DNA from: Myxococcota bacterium
GTDB lineage: Bacteria > Myxococcota_A > UBA9160 > SZUA-336
DNA: 64,000 nt
Direction of reading: 5' to 3'
Assembly: GCA_965247115.1 (NCBI GenBank)
Contig: CBDFGR010000002.1
Coordinates: 736,001-800,000, forward strand
Shown piece after piece: positions 2,514 through 49,024 of this stretch. The translations under genes were made by a program, and so were the position numbers. The notes beneath the pieces are model-generated. The model was given only the letters and a program-made list of their open reading frames with translations, did not search any database and had not been told where the DNA came from. Numbering within the stretch: the first letter of the stretch is position 1; each line of letters begins with the position of its first letter.

Positions 2514-4253
2514 GTGTCCAACGCGCTGGAGCTGAGCGCCGCGCTTCTCGACGCCACGTCGCTGACGGAGGATGAGCTCGAGGTCGCGCTGCGTCGACAG
2601 GAAGAGTCGGGGCAGCGACTGACCGAAGTGTTGCTGGAGCTCGGCCTCGTGCCTGAGCCGGAGCTGCTCGGCCTGCTCGGCGGCCTGTACGGTATCCCGG
2701 TGCGCGACACACTTCGAGCGGATGAAGTGGACGGAGAGCTCGCGACGCAGCTTCCGATCTCCTTCGCCAAGCAACACCACCTGCTGCCGATCCGACGCGA
2801 AGGAGACAGACTCGAGATCGCGATCTCGGATCCGCTCCTGACGGACCCACTCGACGACCTGCAGCTGCTCTTTCCCGGGGTCTCCTGCGAGCCCGTCCTG
2901 TGCAGTCGACGGGCCATCCTGAACTGCATCAACCAGGTATTCGACCGCGCGAGCTCCGCGGAGGAGGTCAGAGGAGAGCTCGGCGACACCGAGCTTGCCG
3001 ACGTCGCCTCTGAGCTGATCGAGGAGCCAAAAGACCTGTTGGACTCGAGCGAGGAGAGTGCCCCTGTCATCCGGCTCGTGAACTCGCTCTTGCAACAGGC
3101 CGTCAAGGAGCGGGCCAGCGACATCCACATCGAGCCGCAGGAGCGGGAGGTGTTGGTGCGCTTCCGCACCGACGACATGCTCTTCGAGCCAATCCGCCCG
3201 CTGCCCCGGCAGCTGCATCAAGCAATTACCTCGCGCATCAAGGTCATGGGGAGGTTGGACATCGCGGAGCGGCGGCTACCGCAGGACGGACGCATCAGCC
3301 TGAAGATCGCGGGCCGCGACTACGACGTGCGGCTGTCCACGATCCCGACGCAGTACGGAGAGCGCAGCGTGATGCGCCTGCTGCCCCGCAGCCAGGACTT
3401 GCTGAGCATCGAGAGTATCGGGCTCAGCGAGGAGCTGCAGCACGTGCTCCGCCGGCTGATCCGACGCAGCAACGGTATCGTGCTGGTCACCGGACCGACG
3501 GGCTCCGGCAAGACCAACACCCTGTACGCGGCACTCGCCGACATCAACTCCCCGGAAAAGAACATCATCACCGTGGAAGACCCCGTCGAGATCCGTCTGG
3601 AAGGGATCGGGCAGATCGAGGTAAAGCCACAGATCGGCCTCACGTTTGCAGCCGGTCTGCGCTCGATCCTGCGCCAGGATCCCAACGTGATCCTGGTCGG
3701 CGAGATCCGCGATTCCGAGACCGCAGAGATCGCGATCCACGCGAGCCTCACGGGCCAGCTGTGCTTCTCTACCCTACACACGAACGAGTCAGCAGGAGCG
3801 ATCACGCGGCTGATCGACATGGGCGTCGAGCCGTTCCTGATCGCCTCGTCGCTCGTCGCCTCGCTCGCCCAGAGGCTCGTGCGCCTTCTGTGCGTCAGCT
3901 GCAAGGAGGCCTACCGTCCAAGCGACGTGGAGCTGGAGGAGATCGGACTCGAGCGCGAGCAGCTCGAGATGGGGAGGCTGTTTCGCGCCAAGGGTTGCGC
4001 GGCGTGCAACCAGACCGGCTACCGGGGCCGCGCCGGGATCTTCGAGATCCTCATCGTGGACGACCATATCCGCAGCATGATCACGGGCGGCATCGACTCC
4101 AAGTCGATTCAGGAGGAGGCCGTCCGCGCGGGAATGACGACAATGCGGATGGACGGCGCACAGAAGGTGCTGCATGGACTGACCGCTGTCTCCGAGATCA
4201 TGCGCCAGACCCAGGAGGAGGCGGTCGCCGCGATCGACCCGGAGGCCGGCTAG
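2514..4253 (+). CDS. gspE: Type II secretion ATPase
   Basis: ASDIHIEP, DIAERRLPQDGR, Walker A GPTGSGKT, LRQDPNVILVGEIRD, tetracysteine motif. Confidence 0.95.
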   Translation: MSNALELSAALLDATSLTEDELEVALRRQEESGQRLTEVLLELGLVPEPELLGLLGGLYGIPVRDTLRADEVDGELATQLPISFAKQHHLLPIRREGDRLEIAISDPLLTDPLDDLQLLFPGVSCEPVLCSRRAILNCINQVFDRASSAEEVRGELGDTELADVASELIEEPKDLLDSSEESAPVIRLVNSLLQQAVKERASDIHIEPQEREVLVRFRTDDMLFEPIRPLPRQLHQAITSRIKVMGRLDIAERRLPQDGRISLKIAGRDYDVRLSTIPTQYGERSVMRLLPRSQDLLSIESIGLSEELQHVLRRLIRRSNGIVLVTGPTGSGKTNTLYAALADINSPEKNIITVEDPVEIRLEGIGQIEVKPQIGLTFAAGLRSILRQDPNVILVGEIRDSETAEIAIHASLTGQLCFSTLHTNESAGAITRLIDMGVEPFLIASSLVASLAQRLVRLLCVSCKEAYRPSDVELEEIGLEREQLEMGRLFRAKGCAACNQTGYRGRAGIFEILIVDDHIRSMITGGIDSKSIQEEAVRAGMTTMRMDGAQKVLHGLTAVSEIMRQTQEEAVAAIDPEAG

Positions 4254-23374: not shown

Positions 23375-24522
23375 TGGATCGGCCCACGGCGGCCGCCTAT
23401 GCGCGACACGCTGGCGAGTGGATCGCAGCGCGCGGACCCAGCCCCCTGGCCACGAAGCGTCTCGAACGCTTCGCCGCCAGGCTGCGCCGGGGAGCGCGAG
23501 TCGCGGACCTGGGTTCCGGCCCCGGCTGGTACGCGGAAATCTTGCAGGCGGGTGGCCTTGCGAGCGTCGCCCTCGATCTCACTCGCGAGATGTTGCGCGA
23601 GGCAGGACGCAGGTATCCCCACCTCCCGCGCGTGCAGGCGGACCTCGGCGCCCTGCCCTTCGCCCGCGGCTCGTTCGATGGCGCCTGGGCCATCAACTGC
23701 CTCTCTCATCTCTCGGCGGCAGAGCTGCCGCTCGCGCTCGCCCACCTACACCATTCGCTCCGTGTCGATGGCTTCATCGAGTTCACCCTGGTCGATCTCG
23801 AGACTGTTGACCCCACGGCGGACGAGCTCCGTCGCGGCACAACGCAGCGCCGCTTCGACGACGACCGCTTTGGCGGTCGGCTGTTCACCGCAGTCACAAA
23901 GGACCGCGCGCGGGTGCTGCTCGAGGGCGCTGGCTTCGACCGGATCCGGATCGAGCGTCCCGAGCAGCGACCCGTCTGGCTCTGGATCCGGGCGCGCAGG
24001 AGCTACACGCTCCCCGACTACCGACGCCCCGGTCTGGACTTGCTCGTCTGCGGGCTAAACCCGTCTCTCCGCGCGGCCGAGAGTGGGATCCCGTTCATCA
24101 CGGGGAGCAACCGCTTCTGGGCCGCCGCCACGAAGGCAGGGCTTGTCGGGCGCGAGCGCGATCCGTGGGATGCGCTCCGAAGGGGCCTGGGATTCACGGA
24201 TCTGGTCAAGCGCCCGACGCGAGGTGCGAACGAGCTCACCGTCGCCGAGTACGCCGCGGGCCTTGAGCGGCTCCGGCAGCGGGTCGGCGAGGAGCGACCG
24301 GGGGCAATCTGCTTTGTGGGTCTGGACGGTTGGCGGCGTGCCGTCGATCGCAGTGCCGAGCCCGGCTGGCTCGCGGATGGAGTCGGAGGCCGCCCGGCGT
24401 ACCTCATGCCGTCCACTTCCGGCCGCAACGCGCAAACGGACCTGACCACGCTGACCCGCCACCTGCGTCGCGCGGCGCGCGGCTCGAATCCTGGAGGCCA
24501 GCGGGCCCGCAACGACGCCTAG
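23374..24522 (+). CDS. Class I SAM methyltransferase fused to a Mug/TDG-type uracil-DNA glycosylase
   Basis: DLGSGPG and LPFARGSFD in the N-half; GLNPS, NRFW, TDLVKRPT, MPSTSGRNA in the C-half. Confidence 0.85.
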   Translation: MDRPTAAAYARHAGEWIAARGPSPLATKRLERFAARLRRGARVADLGSGPGWYAEILQAGGLASVALDLTREMLREAGRRYPHLPRVQADLGALPFARGSFDGAWAINCLSHLSAAELPLALAHLHHSLRVDGFIEFTLVDLETVDPTADELRRGTTQRRFDDDRFGGRLFTAVTKDRARVLLEGAGFDRIRIERPEQRPVWLWIRARRSYTLPDYRRPGLDLLVCGLNPSLRAAESGIPFITGSNRFWAAATKAGLVGRERDPWDALRRGLGFTDLVKRPTRGANELTVAEYAAGLERLRQRVGEERPGAICFVGLDGWRRAVDRSAEPGWLADGVGGRPAYLMPSTSGRNAQTDLTTLTRHLRRAARGSNPGGQRARNDA

Positions 24523-25797
24523 CAGGCTGCGGAGAAAGTGACTGGTTGAGGGGTGGTCCTTCCGACGAGGGGGTTCACCGGCCGAGGGGCGGGGCGCGAT
24601 TCCCGGTTCGAACCGGTCTTGGGCTCCGCTGATCGCGGGGCGGTTTCGCACATGACCTACGTGGCCTCCAGCAGCTTGCGGATCCGGATCAGGTTGTAGG
24701 CTGCGGCCGTGAAGGTGAAGACCCAGCCGACCCGATCCGTGCCGCGGTGTCGGGTCTTGCGCATCAGCCCCACGGTCTTCATCCAGCCGAAGACCTCTTC
24801 CACCCGTTTGCGAAAACGCTGACTCAGTTCGTAGCCCCGGTGGCGCGTCGTCCGCCCGTCGATCGCGCTGCGTCGATTCGTCGTGTTCTGCGCCACGTGT
24901 GGGGTCACGCCCAACTCTCGAAGCTCTTCCACGAACCCCTTCGTGTCGAAGCCCTTGTCTCCGCCCAATGTCCTCCGACGCCCGCCTCCCAGACCTTCCA
25001 CCATCTCGAGCGCCGCTTCGCGCTCCGCATATCCCGACGCCTGCGTGAGCTTCGCCGCGACCACCAAGCCGTTCCGGTTCTCCGTCACCACGTGTCCCTG
25101 GTACGCGAGTCGGGCGCCTTGGCCTCTCATACCGGCGAGTCGTGCGTCGGGATCCGTCGTCGACGCATGCGTCTGGTTGCTCCGCTTCTCGCCTCGGAAG
25201 TTCACCGTCGGGTTGCCCGGGTCATCGTCGTCTCTCCGTTCCTCGTCCTTCCGTACGAAGCTCTTCTGGCTCGCCCACGCCTCGATCAGCGTCCCGTCTA
25301 CCGTGAAGTGCTCCAACGACACCCATCCCTCGGTCTCGGCCTGCTCCAGCACTGCGTCGAAGAAGTGCTCGGCAATCTCGCCCTTGAGCAGCCGGTCTCG
25401 GTTCTTCGTGAACACCGTGGCGCTGAACACCACCTCGTCAAGCTCCAGACCCACGAACCAGCGATACAGCAGGTTGTACTCCAGCTGCTCCACCAGCTGC
25501 CGCTCGCTCCGGATGGTGTAGAGCACCTGCAGCAGCAGGGCGCGCAGCAGCTGCTCCGGGGGCACGGACGGGCGCCCTACGCCTCTGGCGTAGATCGCGT
25601 CGAAGCGCGGCGATAGCCGCTGCAGCGCCGTGTCGACCATGCGCCGCATCGCTCGAAGCGGATGATCATCCGGAATCCGCGACTCCAGCGACACGTAGCT
25701 GAACATCCCGCCCTGAAGCGTCCCCTGTCCTCTCACGCCTCCCCCTTTGGGGCTCGCTCCCAAGGTACCCTTCGATGAGGAGTTTTTCAGCAGCCTG
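24523..25797 (-). mobile_element. IS5-family insertion sequence
   Basis: Imperfect IRs caggctgcggagaaagt / caggctgctgaaaaact; CTAG duplicated at 24519-24522 and 25798-25801. Confidence 0.9.
24657..25736 (-). CDS. IS5-family DDE transposase
   Basis: GRPSVPPEQLLRA, SERQL, VDGTLIEAWAS, STTDPDA, GGDKGFD, RKRVEEVFGW.K. Confidence 0.92.
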   Translation of the reverse strand: MRGQGTLQGGMFSYVSLESRIPDDHPLRAMRRMVDTALQRLSPRFDAIYARGVGRPSVPPEQLLRALLLQVLYTIRSERQLVEQLEYNLLYRWFVGLELDEVVFSATVFTKNRDRLLKGEIAEHFFDAVLEQAETEGWVSLEHFTVDGTLIEAWASQKSFVRKDEERRDDDDPGNPTVNFRGEKRSNQTHASTTDPDARLAGMRGQGARLAYQGHVVTENRNGLVVAAKLTQASGYAEREAALEMVEGLGGGRRRTLGGDKGFDTKGFVEELRELGVTPHVAQNTTNRRSAIDGRTTRHRGYELSQRFRKRVEEVFGWMKTVGLMRKTRHRGTDRVGWVFTFTAAAYNLIRIRKLLEAT

Positions 25798-25829
25798 CTA
25801 GGGGCAATGCGCCTATACTCGCCCGACGC

Positions 25830-25928
<99 letters not shown>

Positions 25929-39495: not shown

Positions 39496-39571
39496 GCCGA
39501 CGTAGCTCAGCTGGTAGAGCAGCTGATTCGTAATCAGCAGGTCAGCGGTTCGAGTCCGCTCGTCGGCTCCA
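39496..39571 (+). tRNA. tRNA-Thr (CGU)
   Basis: 76-nt cloverleaf; GCCGACG/CGTCGGC acceptor; anticodon loop TTCGTAA; GGTTCGAGTCC; CCA end. Confidence 0.97.
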
Positions 39572-39674: not shown

Positions 39675-40040
39675 GTGGAGTCGCCGGAGCAGCTGCAGTT
39701 CATGCGCTGGCTCATGCACGCCGCCGCGCCCATGAAGCCCCGCGTGCCCGGCTTCAACAACGACATGGAGCGCTTCGCGGCCATAGAAGAGCTGCCCCTC
39801 TCGGACATCCGCTGTCCGACCCTGATCACGCACGGGACGGCCGACGGCGACGTACCGTTCAAGCACGCAGAGGACGCCTATCAGATCATCCCAGACTCCC
39901 AGCTCCACCGGATGGAGAACGGATGGCACCTATTGTGGCTGAGTGAGGGCGCAGACGAGATGGTCCGCAGACAGATCGAGTTCGTGAAGGCGCACTCCGA
40001 ATCGAGCCGAACGGTCAGCCAGCCCCGCGTCGGGGCGTAG
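39675..40040 (+). pseudogene. Alpha/beta hydrolase C-terminal fragment
   Basis: PTLITHGTADGDVP...GWH; no nucleophile elbow. Confidence 0.7.
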
Positions 40041-40917: not shown

Positions 40918-41562
40918 GGTCGGTCTCCGTGGCGCCGCCTCCCCCGTGAGGAGCAGTCTATCGCTCTTGCGTGAGAGACTCCAAGGCGACTCCCGAGTGC
41001 CGAATCGGAGATTTCGATGTCGAGCAGTGTCGTCGCCAGAGGCCCAGCCCGCCTCTCGAGCTCGCGCCCCGGGCCTCAGACCAATCGATAGGACGGGAAG
41101 GGCCATTGTCACAACCCGAGAAACCCTCTTAAACTCCCTATCCCCCCAGGTCTTGGGTTCTGCTATCGTTCTCCGCCGAGGGGCCTTCCGATCGGCTTAC
41201 AGCTTCTGGCCTTACCCGCCTGCTCTGTTTCCCATATCGAGTTTGCCTTTCCTGCTCGTGCGCAGGGCCAGGCGGCCAACGTTGCGGGCGGTTTACATAG
41301 CGCCCGACCACCTGAGGTGGAAAGTCCGGCCCCGGAGTCTGGCGCAAATGCCGCGAACTCGAGAAGAAGGTGCGGCAGAGGAATGTCAGTTGAGTAAGAA
41401 GCTATATGTCGGAAATCTTGCCTTTTCTACCACCGAGGACGAGCTACGGGCCGCCTTCGAGAAGGGGATTATATCGCTGTTTACCCAGATTCCGATCTAA
41501 TGGGAATTAGGTACTTTGACTGAATCAACCACCTATCGAGGCTGCCGCCATGGGTGATCTCA

Positions 41563-41856
41563 TCAGCTTCCCGGGAGGCGAGTCTCATCCTCAGGACTCG
41601 GAGCAAGAAGGCGAAGAGTGTCCCGCGCCATCTGAATCAGGTCACGCCGATCCCAAAGAGAGGTCTGGGGATACTTCCCCTCCAACTTCGGATCTGGAGT
41701 CAGAACAAGAACGACCTTTCCGTCTTCTTGGGTCTGGCCGTTGTCGCTATACGCCCAAGTGGACACCTGAGATGGAACGCCAGTATTACGTATGGTTGCG
41801 GTCATATCTTCGTCAGACAGAACCTTGATGCCGCCGTCGCTACGTCGATCGGTCAT
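41563..41856 (-). CDS. Hypothetical passenger protein
   Basis: ATG with AAGGGG Shine-Dalgarno, same strand as the IS operon; an alternative + strand ORF overlaps it. Confidence 0.4.
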   Translation of the reverse strand: MTDRRSDGGIKVLSDEDMTATIRNTGVPSQVSTWAYSDNGQTQEDGKVVLVLTPDPKLEGKYPQTSLWDRRDLIQMARDTLRLLAPSPEDETRLPGS

Positions 41857-41917
41857 TTGCTCATTCCCCTTCTTGCGTCCGTCTGACTTCCTTCACGCTG
41901 TTTACCCAAGGCCCCGA

Positions 41918-42106
41918 TCACTTCCGAGCTCGTGATCCAGGCTTGAGATAGCGCCACTCGTCTTCCTTCTTCGGCGGACTACGCATCAGCGCTCGCGCGA
42001 CATTCTCCGGTGTGTCCGGGATCGGGTCGGGCATGACCAGCTTCTCCGGCCGGCCTCGGCGACGTTTCTGTTTGTTCGACTCTGACTGATTACGGTTTGC
42101 GGTCAT
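41918..42106 (-). CDS. Small basic IS-associated protein
   Basis: RRGRP...IPDTPENVARALM..PPKK...W.YL; ATGA overlap with the endonuclease stop. Confidence 0.6.
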   Translation of the reverse strand: MTANRNQSESNKQKRRRGRPEKLVMPDPIPDTPENVARALMRSPPKKEDEWRYLKPGSRARK

Positions 42107-42750
42107 CTCGACTCTCCAAAATACTGCTTCAGGAACTCAAAGACTTCACGCTTTTGCACCTCGGACGCCGACTGAACAATGGCGAAGACATTAAGCCAGC
42201 CGGTTTCATCATCCCAATAGTTCTTCTTCATGACTTGGTGACGCCCGCAAAGGGGTTGCCATTTTGTCGGGTCTTTGGGGTTAGCCTCAGCGTGAAGTGC
42301 GTGAGGCGTTCGATGGTCAGGTGTGAGTTTGACTGTCCCTCCGCCCACAAGGTCGGTATCGCCGTTACGCAAGTTGCAAGTTATGCCGCTTTCCTGCCAA
42401 GCGCACCGATCTTCGTATTGAGCTAAAACGAGTTTCCAAGTAGCTGCCGTGGGGCGTGTACGGCGGAGTGCTGTAGCTCGGCGCTCCGCGTTCGGCATCA
42501 TGTACTCACTGACCTTCAGCTCGTCTCGGTTTCGCCAAGATAGGATCGTATAACCCTCGTCGGTTCGTAATTCCGAAAGGCGTTGATGCCAGTTTTCAGG
42601 GATACGTCCCGACTCGGGGTCAGTTGCAACTTCGATCAACTGTTCACGAGTGGCCACTTTACCAGGATTATCCAGAAAGAATGCCTTGATGCGCTTCCGT
42701 ATCGACCCCTGGCGGTATGTTCCTTGAATGGTGGCATTTCTATCTTCCAT
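42103..42750 (-). CDS. HNH type II restriction endonuclease, KpnI-like
   Basis: PENWHQRLSELRTD.GYTILSWR, GGGTVKLTPDH.TPH and WQ.LCGRHQVMKKNYWD match R.KpnI as I recall it. Confidence 0.85.
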   Translation of the reverse strand: MEDRNATIQGTYRQGSIRKRIKAFFLDNPGKVATREQLIEVATDPESGRIPENWHQRLSELRTDEGYTILSWRNRDELKVSEYMMPNAERRATALRRTRPTAATWKLVLAQYEDRCAWQESGITCNLRNGDTDLVGGGTVKLTPDHRTPHALHAEANPKDPTKWQPLCGRHQVMKKNYWDDETGWLNVFAIVQSASEVQKREVFEFLKQYFGESR

Positions 42751-43507
42751 TCAAACGCCGGTGCTTTGCGATTCTTGATCGCGTCAGAGTTAGGGATTCG
42801 GGAGAATTGTCACAGAGGATTCCATTTCGCTTGAGGCGAAGGCACGCTTCGCCCGTGGTTCCAGAGCCGCACATGGGGTCAAGTACAGTGTCGTTCTCTT
42901 TGGTGGACATGGACAGCAACGGCTCAATCACCGAAAGCGGTTTTTGAGCCGGGTGGCCCGTCTGCTCTGAACGCCCAACAAATCCGATATTGAGCGACGC
43001 TTCCAGTACCGAGGAAGGGCCGGGCACAAAACGCATCTTCCCATTGTAGAAGCGTTTGAGTTGCTCCTCATTCAAGAAGTGCTCCGGGTAAACCGGCGCG
43101 TTGTCCGATGCTATGTGCAGGCAAGTATTCTGCGCTGATCTCCACCCTCTAATGACGGAAGGACAGTTCTTGTAGTACCACGTGAGCCATGCCACAAGAC
43201 CGAAACCCGATGGGATGTGAGCGATCTGGTGGGCGATAATTTCCGGAAATCCCCAGATGAAGACGTGTTCAGAAATCTTGCACGCAGCATGGATGACGTC
43301 GGTAAGCCAACCGTCATAATCTGGTCGGAATCCACCGACTCCTTTGTTGTACCAAGGGTCGAGTATGACCGCATTTACGGGTGGAACCACCGCAAGCGTA
43401 TCCAGCACATCAGCCGCCGGAAGCATCTTGATAGTTGGGCGCTTTATGCGGGGGCTACGAGATTTCCGCTGCTTTGTGGCTGACGCTTGAACCGAGCCAT
43501 CCATCAC
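42740..43507 (-). CDS. Beta-class amino DNA methyltransferase
   Basis: Motif IV variant DPWY, HPAQKP, motif I DPMCGSGTT. Confidence 0.88.
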   Translation of the reverse strand: MMDGSVQASATKQRKSRSPRIKRPTIKMLPAADVLDTLAVVPPVNAVILDPWYNKGVGGFRPDYDGWLTDVIHAACKISEHVFIWGFPEIIAHQIAHIPSGFGLVAWLTWYYKNCPSVIRGWRSAQNTCLHIASDNAPVYPEHFLNEEQLKRFYNGKMRFVPGPSSVLEASLNIGFVGRSEQTGHPAQKPLSVIEPLLSMSTKENDTVLDPMCGSGTTGEACLRLKRNGILCDNSPESLTLTRSRIAKHRRLNGR

Positions 43508-44481
43508 GTCGTCTCCGCCGACGCCCCGGTGGCCTGAATTAGATCCCGGTATCGCAGGCGCTTCCCGAACATCGCACTCGCCACGGTCCGCATCTGGTCG
43601 AGCGTGTCGTACTCACGGACGTTGTGCCGCCCGGCGAATTCGCAGACGTAGCGGTTTAGGTGCTTCGGGGACATCTTGTGATACGTCCCCTGATAGCCAC
43701 GCTTGAGCATTGACCAGAACGACTCCACGCCGTTCGTATGTGCTTGGCCTCGCACGTACTCCCCCACGCTGTGACGGACGCTCTCGCGGTTCGGATAGCC
43801 GCTGTACGCGGTCGCGTCGTCGGTGTAGACCTTCGCGCCTGGTGAGACTCGACTGGCAACGAACCCCTGGAGGGTCGCGGAGTCCGTCGCGGACACAACG
43901 ACAGCGCTCACGCGCTTTGTGGTCCGATCCTTCACGCCGACTACAGCGGTTTTGCCCACGGGTCCTCTCCCCAGCCGCAACTTCTTTCGGGCGTGTTTGT
44001 TGCGTTCCCGCCCGCCCAGATACGTCTCATCGACTTCCACCGGCCCCGCGAAGGGCTGCTCTCCACCGCTCCCATCCTGCCACACCTCACGGATTCGGTG
44101 GGCCAAATGCCAGGCCGTGCGCTGAGTGACGTGTAGATCACGGTGCAGCTTCATCGACGCAACGCCCTTGAGGTTGGTGTTCATCAGGTAGATGGCGAAG
44201 GCCCAGACCTGGTAGCCCTTCTTGGAGTTCTCCATGACCGTCCCGGTTTTGAGACTGAAATCTTTGCGGCAATCGCGGCAACGGTAGGGCTGGGGCTTGC
44301 GCGTGGGGCGCTCCTGAATGTTCAGGGAGCCGCACTTGGGGCAGGCCACGCCATCTGGCCATCGAGCCTCGATGAACCAGCGCTCGGCCGCCGCGTCGTC
44401 CGGGAACATCTTGGCCACCTCGACCATCGACAGGCCCTTACGGTGCGCCTTTCCCGGTCCCTTCTTGCCGCCCTTCGCCAT
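43504..44481 (-). CDS. IS1595-family transposase
   Basis: RWPDGVACPKCGS zinc ribbon, VEVDETYLGG, YTDD, HTNGVESFWSMLKRG..G.YH. Confidence 0.95.
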   Translation of the reverse strand: MAKGGKKGPGKAHRKGLSMVEVAKMFPDDAAAERWFIEARWPDGVACPKCGSLNIQERPTRKPQPYRCRDCRKDFSLKTGTVMENSKKGYQVWAFAIYLMNTNLKGVASMKLHRDLHVTQRTAWHLAHRIREVWQDGSGGEQPFAGPVEVDETYLGGRERNKHARKKLRLGRGPVGKTAVVGVKDRTTKRVSAVVVSATDSATLQGFVASRVSPGAKVYTDDATAYSGYPNRESVRHSVGEYVRGQAHTNGVESFWSMLKRGYQGTYHKMSPKHLNRYVCEFAGRHNVREYDTLDQMRTVASAMFGKRLRYRDLIQATGASAETT

Positions 44482-44506
44482 TCCCGGCCTCCTTATTTAT
44501 GGCGAC

Positions 44507-44535
44507 AGTTTACCCAACTAGCAGGGCGGCGTCAA
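44507..44535 (-). promoter_or_regulatory. Sigma70-type promoter for the tnp-M-R operon
   Basis: TTGACG-17 bp-TAAACT on the minus strand; AGGAGG Shine-Dalgarno before the ATG. Confidence 0.65.
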
Positions 44536-44800
44536 GGGAATCTGGGTAAACAGCGATATAATCCCCTTCGAGAAACACGGCCGCGTCGAGTCCGTGAACG
44601 TGATCATGGATCGCGATACCGGCCGTTCTCGTGGCTTTGGGTTCGTCGAGATGGACGAAGCCAGTACCGCGGACGCTGCGATGCGCGCCCTCGACGGGAG
44701 CAATCTCGGCGGCCGAGACCTCAAGGTCAACGAAGCGAACGAGCGGGGTCGCGGCGGCGGCGGCGGCGGCGGCAGAGACCGCTACTAGGTCGGGTCCAAC

Positions 44801-47315: not shown

Positions 47316-47495
47316 AGGCTCTCGAGAGCCAACTGACCCGGTGCGCCCACCGCGGGGGTCGTCGAAGGCAGTGTGCGAAACGGTGTGCGAACTGGTCGCA
47401 ACAGGCGCAAACAGGACGAAACCAGGAGTACCGTATGTCCCCGATTTTCGTACCGCAGGCAAACAGACCGCAACGCAGCACAACGTCCGGGACGA

Positions 47496-47540
47496 ATTCG
47501 TAATCAGCAGGTCAGCGGTTCGAGTCCGCTCGTCGGCTCC
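47496..47540 (+). repeat. att site: 45-bp copy of the tRNA-Thr 3' half
   Basis: Identical to 39526-39570. Confidence 0.97.
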
Positions 47541-47772
47541 GCGATTGCAACCACTTACGCGCCGGCTCGCATAGCTCCACTCTGATCGGGAAGCATATGG
47601 GAAGCAGTGGAGCCGACCGATAGGCGCCCACATCGTGATCCCCCCCAGATGCCCCCTCCCCCCAAGACAAGGCCAGATCCGACTCGAGTTCGGTCTCGAA
47701 AATCTCCAGCAGTTATCCGGTACATGCGGTTATTCTAGACGGACCACCCGAACCCGGAGAACCGAGAACGCC

Positions 47773-48222: not shown

Positions 48223-48384
48223 GGTCGAACCGGGTCCACGACTCGAGCCTGTTGCCCGACGGGCATCTATGTAACAACGATGTAGCAGCGGGAACGGCAC
48301 AGCACGGCTCAACGTGGGACGGTCGCCGGCATCCAAACCCTTGATCCGGCGTCCCATGTCGTCCCGCGGCGTGCCGTCGGGGGC

Positions 48385-48431
48385 GATTCGTAATCAGCAG
48401 GTCAGCGGTTCGAGTCCGCTCGTCGGCTCCA
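48385..48431 (+). repeat. att site: 47-bp copy of the tRNA-Thr 3' half
   Basis: Identical to 39525-39571. Confidence 0.97.
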
Positions 48432-49024
48432 TGATGTCACGCACTTACGCGCCGACACCCATAGTTCCACTCCGACCGGGAAGCACATGGGAAGCAGTGA
48501 AGCCGACCCGATGGGCGCCCAAATCGCCTTGTCCGCGATCCCGCCAGATCCCCCCTCCCCCCCCCAAGGCATCGCCGGATCCGACTCGGCGTTCGGCCGA
48601 GAGAATCTCGGGCAGTTGGAGCAGAGGGCAATACGCCAGCCCGCGAGTCGTGAGCTGCGAACAACAGACCACTTCCTGCTCCCAACTAGGCACGCCGACA
48701 CAATTCCAAGTGGTCTGCAGGTTGGTAGCGGGGGAGGGATTCAACGGAAAAGCAGCAGAATTCCGGCTGTAGTCCGAGTTCCGATTGCGGCCTGACCCGG
48801 ACCCCTCGGCAGCATGAGATCGGCGTCTTCGTTGGAGCGCAAGCTCCCGGAATGTCGCTCGGTTCGAGCAGGAGACTTTGCTTGGCTGATTCGGTCACCG
48901 CCAGCCTTCCGGGCGAATTCGACCCTGTTAGAACTACCAGTTGACCCCATGGGACGGCTTGTGCTCAAGTCCACCGCCCCCAACAGACGATGGCTCGTCG
49001 CGGCATCGGATCGCAGCAAGGAGC

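Follow-up and report, generated by a model that had tools for sequence, protein, structure and literature searches.

Insertion sequences (ISs) of the IS1595 family can carry passenger genes within their ends, and such transporter ISs (tISs), for example MTnSag1/tISSag10 and tISCpe8, are described with resistance-gene passengers (PMC5704250). The family is marked by the IS1595 domain, a zinc finger (in all groups except IS1016) and an 8-bp target duplication (PMC8101967), and a replicative route via a circle has been suggested for it (PMC5704250). Restriction-modification (R-M) genes have also been found in IS-like units: Furuta, Abe and Kobayashi (2010) described R-M units between inverted repeats (IRs) of 65 bp in Xanthomonas oryzae and 26 bp in Neisseria gonorrhoeae, and cite Siguier 2009, an IS1595 paper, for R-M or methyltransferase (M) genes flanked by ISs (PMC2853133). 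Here, we describe a 64,000-nucleotide stretch of a Myxococcota bacterium genome (contig CBDFGR010000002.1, positions 736,001 to 800,000; hereafter the window) that contains a 3103-bp IS1595-family element in which a transposase gene is followed by genes for a DNA methyltransferase and a KpnI-like endonuclease. The element has inserted as a unit at two sites, and it is a transporter IS that probably delivers a Type II R-M pair, with GGTACC as the predicted recognition sequence.

The 3103 bp of the element lie between perfect 30-bp IRs with an 8-bp duplication on either side, as a sequence-only reading of the window had claimed, and the insertion splits a host gene. The features of the element and its insertion site are as follows:

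41390..41463, plus strand: 5' part of a host RRM RNA-binding protein gene, interrupted by the insertion; in the empty site the frame is one 95-aa open reading frame (ORF)
41456..41463, no strand: first copy of the target site duplication, TTCGAGAA, which occurs once in the empty site
41464..41493, no strand: terminal IR of the downstream (right) end, 30 bp, first letters GGGGATTATAT; the copy on contig C3 has the same ends
42103..42750, minus strand: KpnI-family HNH Type IIP endonuclease (predicted), 215 aa; PADLOC REase_II PDLC03503, E 5e-79
42740..43507, minus strand: beta-class amino (N6-adenine or N4-cytosine) DNA methyltransferase, 255 aa; PF01555 74.4 bits against a cut-off of 26.7, PADLOC MTase_II 1.5e-24
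43504..44481, minus strand: IS1595-family DDE transposase, 325 aa, with N-terminal zinc ribbon; PF12762, PF12760, NF033547; D151, D221, E253
44537..44566, no strand: terminal IR of the upstream (left) end, 30 bp
44567..44574, no strand: target site duplication copy 2 (TTCGAGAA)
44567..44788, plus strand: 3' part of the interrupted RRM gene; PF00076 40.1 bits against a cut-off of 20.7, three paralogues in the genome at 68-77%

A BLAST search of the bacterium's own genome identifies a second copy (G000:C3:2495933-2499035) that is identical at 3103 of 3103 positions and has exactly the same ends. This copy has different flanks and a different 8-bp duplication, CAACAATA, and sits upstream of a divergent 222-aa gene that begins 60 bp from it. 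In both copies the entire cargo lies within the IRs, which is what defines a tIS. When the window copy is removed together with one duplication, an intact 95-aa RNA-binding protein gene (PF00076) is restored, and the same-genus genome G014 has three loci in which the RRM gene is unbroken and the 8-mer is single. The joint that skips 3111 bp, the empty site, is present in contigs of all four sequencing runs examined, from four studies. Run X1 is probably the source sample and is not independent; X5, X6 and X9 are the other samples that contain the element, and in each the empty joint has good support, its short side spanning 175 letters, with the element also present, so that in those populations the element sits elsewhere. 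The empty contigs could derive from a sister species or from a near-identical paralogue, since G014 has three such RRM copies. There, the RRM gene and its upstream region occur three times (L140, L142 and L143) at 94-98% identity, a hint of a mobile or duplicated unit.

The two identical copies with different duplications, together with the empty sites, indicate that the whole unit transposes, which supports the self-mobility and recency proposed by the sequence-only reading. Four points go beyond that reading: the copy on contig C3, the RRM gene split by the insertion, the probable fifth ORF behind a leftover inner end and the separate lineage of the methyltransferase. A search of 31 further genomes of the order, of which 16 are at least 90% complete and several are incomplete, did not find the nuclease, and the GC content of the element is 0.57, compared with 0.66 for the genome (cargo genes 53-54%). 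Both observations point to a recent arrival, and recent arrival and recent transposition of the element are well supported. Its targets are AT-rich, with 85% A+T over 15 duplications. No circle junction appears among the joints listed for the runs, although contigs cannot show absence. In the metatranscriptome run X6, contigs cover the element; the library may hold DNA.

The assignment to the IS1595 family made by the sequence-only reading is borne out by the transposase, which scores 174.8 bits against NF033547 (cut-off 75), 131.7 bits against PF12762 and 37.9 bits against PF12760 (cut-off 25.4), and the element has the zinc finger domain, terminal IRs and 8-bp duplication that mark the family. 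Its ends fit GGnnATTAT, which we take to be the motif of the ISNwi group; Siguier, Gagnevin and Chandler (in 2009) reportedly described this end motif as well as methyltransferase passengers in the group. The ISNwi group was not recovered as monophyletic (PMC8101967). Like known tISs, the element has a single DDE transposase with a zinc ribbon, IRs of 25-30 bp, an 8-bp duplication and passengers inside its ends. Its passengers, however, are a complete Type IIP pair whose genes overlap in a single operon with the transposase gene, whereas the passengers of known tISs are a resistance gene or a lone methyltransferase; here, a constant small basic ORF closes the slot. The units of Furuta et al. 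resemble it in having R-M genes inside IRs and an 8-bp duplication, and their empty site, too, is seen in a relative (PMC2853133). The intact transposase and the two copies at different targets set the element apart from both units: no transposase is described for the Xanthomonas unit, and the Neisseria unit has a truncated Type IIG gene and a likely inactivated transposase. In the case of PaeR7I, an IS likewise moved together with a Type II R-M system, but there by laboratory plasmid co-integration at IS1 or IS5, and here with the pair inside one IS (PMC3031569).

The nuclease is the passenger with a characterised relative, KpnI of Klebsiella pneumoniae, which cuts GGTAC^C (PMC4081073). The reference sequence, R.KpnI (T2K1_KLEPN), was reached via an E. 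coli homologue that led to cluster P0122, which bears this name. The window nuclease is identical to it at 115 of 205 positions (56%) without gaps (E 5e-89), with 51 of 84 identities in residues 11-95 and 50 of 90 in residues 96-185, so that the match to R.KpnI motifs claimed from the sequence stands. Residues D145, H146, Q172 and D160 correspond to D148, H149, Q175 and D163 of KpnI (PMC3834813), and the HNH catalytic residues (D148, H149 and Q175 in KpnI) are invariant in 80-84 homologous loci. Within the ExDxD motif, D134 and D136 are kept, whereas the equivalent of E132 is N. In a structural model (predicted local distance difference test score 82.9), residues 13-90 form a winged helix that matches NaeI (Z 8.2, root-mean-square deviation 2.1, 73 residues aligned); matches of the HNH domain (99-181) are weak, and Foldseek gives no match at E 0.001 or better. 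The nuclease belongs to a branch of the KpnI family with 1580 homologues, found in two plasmid records; a search of viral contigs gave three pattern matches and no true relative. The enzyme is predicted to cut GGTACC. The element itself has no GGTACC site, an absence often expected by chance.

The methyltransferase is of a different lineage from the KpnI-type enzyme. Its motif IV, DPWY, lies at residues 50-53, before motif I at 210-216, and the D, P and W are constant in 75 of 75 homologues. Against the 418-aa enzyme encoded beside the E. coli KpnI homologue, used as a stand-in for M.KpnI, it matches in motif I only (37 aa, E 3e-4). The E. coli nuclease is 87% identical to R.KpnI and its methyltransferase gene is divergently transcribed, whereas in the window the M and R (nuclease) genes are in tandem. 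Judged from these comparisons, the methyltransferase is not orthologous to the KpnI-type 418-aa enzyme. The earlier description of the cargo as a KpnI-like R-M system therefore holds for the nuclease and fails for the methyltransferase, whereas the claim of a complete R-M pair alongside the transposase, here a co-oriented M-R pair, is upheld. A search of the PDB, plasmids and phages for a characterised close relative of the methyltransferase returned weak or partial matches only. In 53 of 56 GTDB loci, the nuclease is accompanied by a methyltransferase of this family, with three gene arrangements represented; this is good indirect evidence of a cognate pair, and the methyltransferase is predicted to protect the nuclease's site.

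Relatives of the pair occur both with and without an IS. Among the 53 loci, 49 have the gene order of the window and 4 are tandem-reversed or convergent. A full IS1595 transposase lies directly upstream in 4 of the 49 (L014, L021, L026 and L032) and a truncated one in 3 (L019, L024 and L043); L014 and L032 also have IRs and 8-bp duplications. There is a weak tblastn transposase match at L030, and L049 keeps a right end and small ORF. The IS-linked rows are labelled with five phyla, and in a quick tree they are scattered among IS-free rows within a single clade of 41 rows (SH-aLRT 97). Many IS-free pairs share a locus beside recD2 in Anaerolineae, and none of 35 metagenome loci has a full transposase. 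In the five full elements, the transposases are 48-76% identical and the nucleases 68-87% identical. On the transposase tree, the KpnI-like cassette needs four changes, at least two of which are forced by starred branches, which suggests exchange between backbones. The organism names suggest that the carriers are sponge symbionts. A broader proposal would make this IS1595 group a shuttle for R-M cassettes across the phyla of one habitat: one KpnI-like cassette would have passed between several transposase lineages, reached at least five phyla and become domesticated once the IS was lost, and the transposase, by binding the second IR-core copy on the promoter, would replace a controller (C) protein in timing the nuclease. 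We regard this proposal as doubtful.

Sister elements show what else the position of the pair can hold. The census took 40 of 90 listed related transposase loci, 20 in genome G067 (that of L043) and 20 outside it. Outside G067, 11 of 20 loci have IRs and a duplication, and 6 of these 11 (5 of 9 distinct elements) hold R-M-type genes in the cargo slot: a Type IIG gene (L102), a methyltransferase and HNH (L103, L109 and L110), an Eco29kI-family nuclease (L105), and a Type II nuclease together with part of a methyltransferase (L113). In the remaining 4 of 9 distinct elements, the cargo genes are membrane-like, HTH or unknown. Regardless of cargo, sister elements have a small basic ORF ahead of their right end. 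The nearest relative, L100, has a transposase at 69% identity, other cargo and an end 30 bp past the small ORF. The twin copies L109 and L110 (G048) lie at different targets, with the methyltransferase-HNH gene in opposite orientation, and have one TAG in the transposase match. G067 shows a burst of the IS group, with 379 candidates, 60 of 60 scored being matched; the elements examined there share ends, occupy different targets and are in some cases nested with another IS. The window's own genome contains further IS1595-family elements. L060 (G000:C3:949286-953809) is an IS1595 element of another kind, with 17-bp IRs; it encodes a P63C protein and has a methyltransferase-HNH gene into which a DUF772/DDE transposase is inserted. 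L061 (G000:C3:2509971-2512470) has a 364-aa unknown protein and a PIN-like ORF (by eye, with no Pfam match), and L062 (G000:C2, about 1625817-1628882) has an NYN protein matching PADLOC HEC-09 at 4e-43.

Several observations weigh against the view that the element is a vehicle for R-M delivery. The pair has no transposase trace in the profile search at 42 of 49 M-R loci, so delivery by an IS is seen at a minority of loci, and other routes may be the main ones. The R-M phylogeny, a quick tree of 71 rows from which partial-gene loci were left out, has 21 of its 64 inner branches open. The census genomes were chosen mostly because the nuclease is present, the 20 G067 loci are elements of about 1.5 kb without such cargo, and the higher identity of the cargo than of the transposases may reflect slower cargo evolution. 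The predicted site is not clearly avoided: observed/expected GGTACC is 0.91 in the genome (rank 24 of 64), which is not distinct from general palindrome avoidance, and GGTACC ranks 25 of 64 in the 56 loci and from 10 to 31 of 64 across four sets of carrier loci. Finally, the nuclease allele has three rare residues (E22K, P134L and D157N) at columns at least 95% conserved, as many as are found in only 6 of 239 homologues; such changes at conserved columns mean that the allele may be weakened.

The census bears on whether the R-M pair is a chance hitch-hiker, with IS elements taking any neighbouring genes and R-M genes not favoured. The non-R-M cargo of the 4 distinct sister elements fits this explanation, as do the at least 60 matches in G067, of which those examined are short and without R-M cargo. 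However, the R-M-type genes of the other 5 are of four kinds, and the IS1595 elements of the window's genome carry a methyltransferase-HNH gene (L060) and an NYN/HEC-09 protein (L062), so we consider chance capture improbable.

A second alternative accepts a working R-M system and gives it a recognition sequence other than GGTACC. The methyltransferase, with its lineage distinct from the KpnI type, its unusual DPWY motif and its lack of a close characterised relative, is compatible with this, as is the non-specific avoidance of GGTACC; site avoidance was set aside as a test of specificity, being uninformative where GGTACC is not separable from general palindrome avoidance. Conversely, the ungapped 56% identity to R.KpnI runs across both domains, Type IIP enzymes at such similarity are usually isoschizomers, and one site can be protected by unrelated methyltransferases. 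Another specificity is therefore unlikely, and GGTACC is retained as the predicted site of the delivered pair.

The rare residues bring in a third alternative, that the nuclease is weakened or dead in this lineage and the element now spreads in effect as a carrier of an orphan methyltransferase; loss of toxicity may have allowed it to be copied. E is present at position 22 in 99% of 239 homologues, and neither P at 29 nor L at 134 occurs in any of them; L29P is private to the window lineage, and X5, X6 and X9 read L. Among the 119 closest homologues, four residues are rare (E22K, P134L, L29P and G76D, without D157N), and 2 of 119 have as many. The changes E22K, L29P, P134L and D157N contrast with no such rare changes in the methyltransferase among 64 homologues. 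Of the three other samples that contain the element, two have a disrupted nuclease: in X5 a one-base insertion shifts the frame at codon 78, and in X9 there is a 176-bp deletion (codons 54-113), while the X9 transposase has gained one base as well. No methyltransferase lesion is listed for X5 or X9. Nuclease decay is common around the element. Yet the window allele keeps all catalytic and putative zinc-binding residues, it is not extreme by a looser measure of rare residues (17 of 239 homologues equal or exceed it), the X6 frame is unbroken, and the X5 and X9 lesions rest on single assembled contigs of depth 7 and 13. A weakened or dead nuclease is thus possible, and it is the likeliest of the alternatives to delivery of an R-M pair.

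The same lesions bear on the proposal of the sequence-only reading that post-segregational killing stabilises the IS, the nuclease acting as an addiction element that kills cells losing it. Addiction is established for Type II R-M systems on plasmids, both nuclease copies here are open frames with intact catalytic residues, and the IS-linked movement of PaeR7I depended on restriction-based selection (PMC3031569). However, a chromosomal IS is not lost by segregation, and with two copies of the element the loss of one would leave methylation intact. Addiction would protect the methyltransferase gene rather than the transposase or the ends. Moreover, addiction fits poorly because the pair outlives the IS (in the 42 of 49 loci without a transposase), the IS outlives the nuclease (frameshifted in X5, deleted by 176 bp in X9) and the two copies back each other. 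On this indirect evidence the proposal is not supported, and we judge addiction unlikely. The best explanation is that the IS serves the spread of the R-M pair more than the pair serves the stability of the IS.

The arrangement of genes within the element suggests how such delivery might work. On the minus strand, transposase (325 aa), methyltransferase (255 aa), nuclease (215 aa) and small ORF (62 aa) follow each other with overlaps of 4, 11 and 4 nt, as the sequence-only reading had noted, and these overlaps suggest one coupled operon. Further features belong to this arrangement:

41563..41856, minus strand: probable fifth ORF, 97 aa; no family in Pfam/NCBIfam/PADLOC, best Atlas score 0.79
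41896..41908, no strand: inner IR core, exact 13-bp copy, where sister elements have their right end
41918..42106, minus strand: small basic ORF, 62 aa; L100, L103, L104 and L105, with unrelated cargo, have homologues (36-74% identity) ahead of their right IR
44507..44535, minus strand: sigma-70-like promoter TTGACG-17-TAAACT in the left end, its -10 overlapping an inverted 9-bp copy of the IR core

The small basic ORF has no family in Pfam/NCBIfam/PADLOC and only unnamed clusters in the Atlas (0.93 and 0.91, low recognition). Small basic ORFs also follow the nuclease in L014, L019, L021, L026, L032 and L049. The ORF appears to be an element-intrinsic gene of the IS group that closes the cargo slot; a role as R-M component, either controller protein or toxin, was rejected, as the ORF occurs with unrelated cargo and belongs to no family. 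The 13-bp IR core has three exact matches in the window, namely both ends and the inner copy, whose implied end lies 33 bp past the small ORF stop, compared with 30 bp in L100. The inner core is likely a leftover right end, and its place at the right-end position of sister elements means that the element likely grew by about 420 bp. The fifth ORF was likely captured as the element extended beyond this older end; in runs X5 and X9 its length differs by 27 bp, in frame, and a plus-strand ORF (41550-41828) that overlaps it is an alternative to it.

Upstream, the promoter scan found 2 sites against 1.1 expected by chance, which is weak by itself, and a Shine-Dalgarno-like motif (44488-44495) precedes the transposase. 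A second IR-core copy near the promoter is not a general rule: it passes a shuffle test (at most 5 of 500) in 6 of 21 left ends, including those of L014, L021 and L032, whereas the left end in the window fails it (44 of 500), and regulation of the operon by its transposase is no more than a lead. In the proposed mechanism, one promoter in the left end would drive all four genes, from the transposase to the small ORF, as one operon with coupled translation. The operon appears to have no controller gene and M precedes R, so that a new host might be methylated first. The transposase would bind the 30-bp ends and insert the unit at AT-rich 8-bp targets, and the pair would occupy an exchangeable slot between transposase and small ORF. 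After delivery, the transposase and ends may tend to decay while the pair stays as an ordinary chromosomal defence; alternatively, the nuclease may decay first, as in the strains related to the window strain.

The region around the element holds other repeats. Upstream of the RRM gene lies a repeat of 80-90 bp (41060-41149) that recurs about 9 more times in the genome and about 20 times in G014. A tRNA-Thr(cgt) gene (39496-39571) is accompanied by partial tRNA-like repeats near 39860-39930, 47390-47714 and 48232-48617, a pattern as left by successive island integrations. A Mutator/IS256-family transposase (PF00872; 38015-39319) has further copies in the genome, and a tRNA-SeC gene (25830-25928) adjoins a repeat region (24503-25810) with 27 BLAST matches in the genome.

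Like KpnI, the window nuclease keeps D148, H149, Q175 and D163 as well as D134 and D136 of ExDxD; unlike the KpnI system, the pair combines E132 replaced by N with a 255-aa DPWY methyltransferase, in tandem and inside an IS. In a literature search, no IS1595 element bearing a complete Type IIP pair, KpnI-like or otherwise, came to light; ISfinder and REBASE lay outside this search, and an earlier description is possible. The mobility of the element is unusually well evidenced; mobile R-M units have precedent, and no new mechanism of mobility or defence is involved. It is an old question how Type II R-M pairs enter new hosts without killing them, and none of the published IS-like R-M units compared here has a working transposase. 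The unit described here is autonomous, 3.1 kb long and clonable whole; it has two insertions and empty sites, and its relatives occur in several phyla. It also brings to light a branch of the KpnI family that is widespread and uncharacterised, has a DPWY methyltransferase family of its own and is a possible source of isoschizomers.

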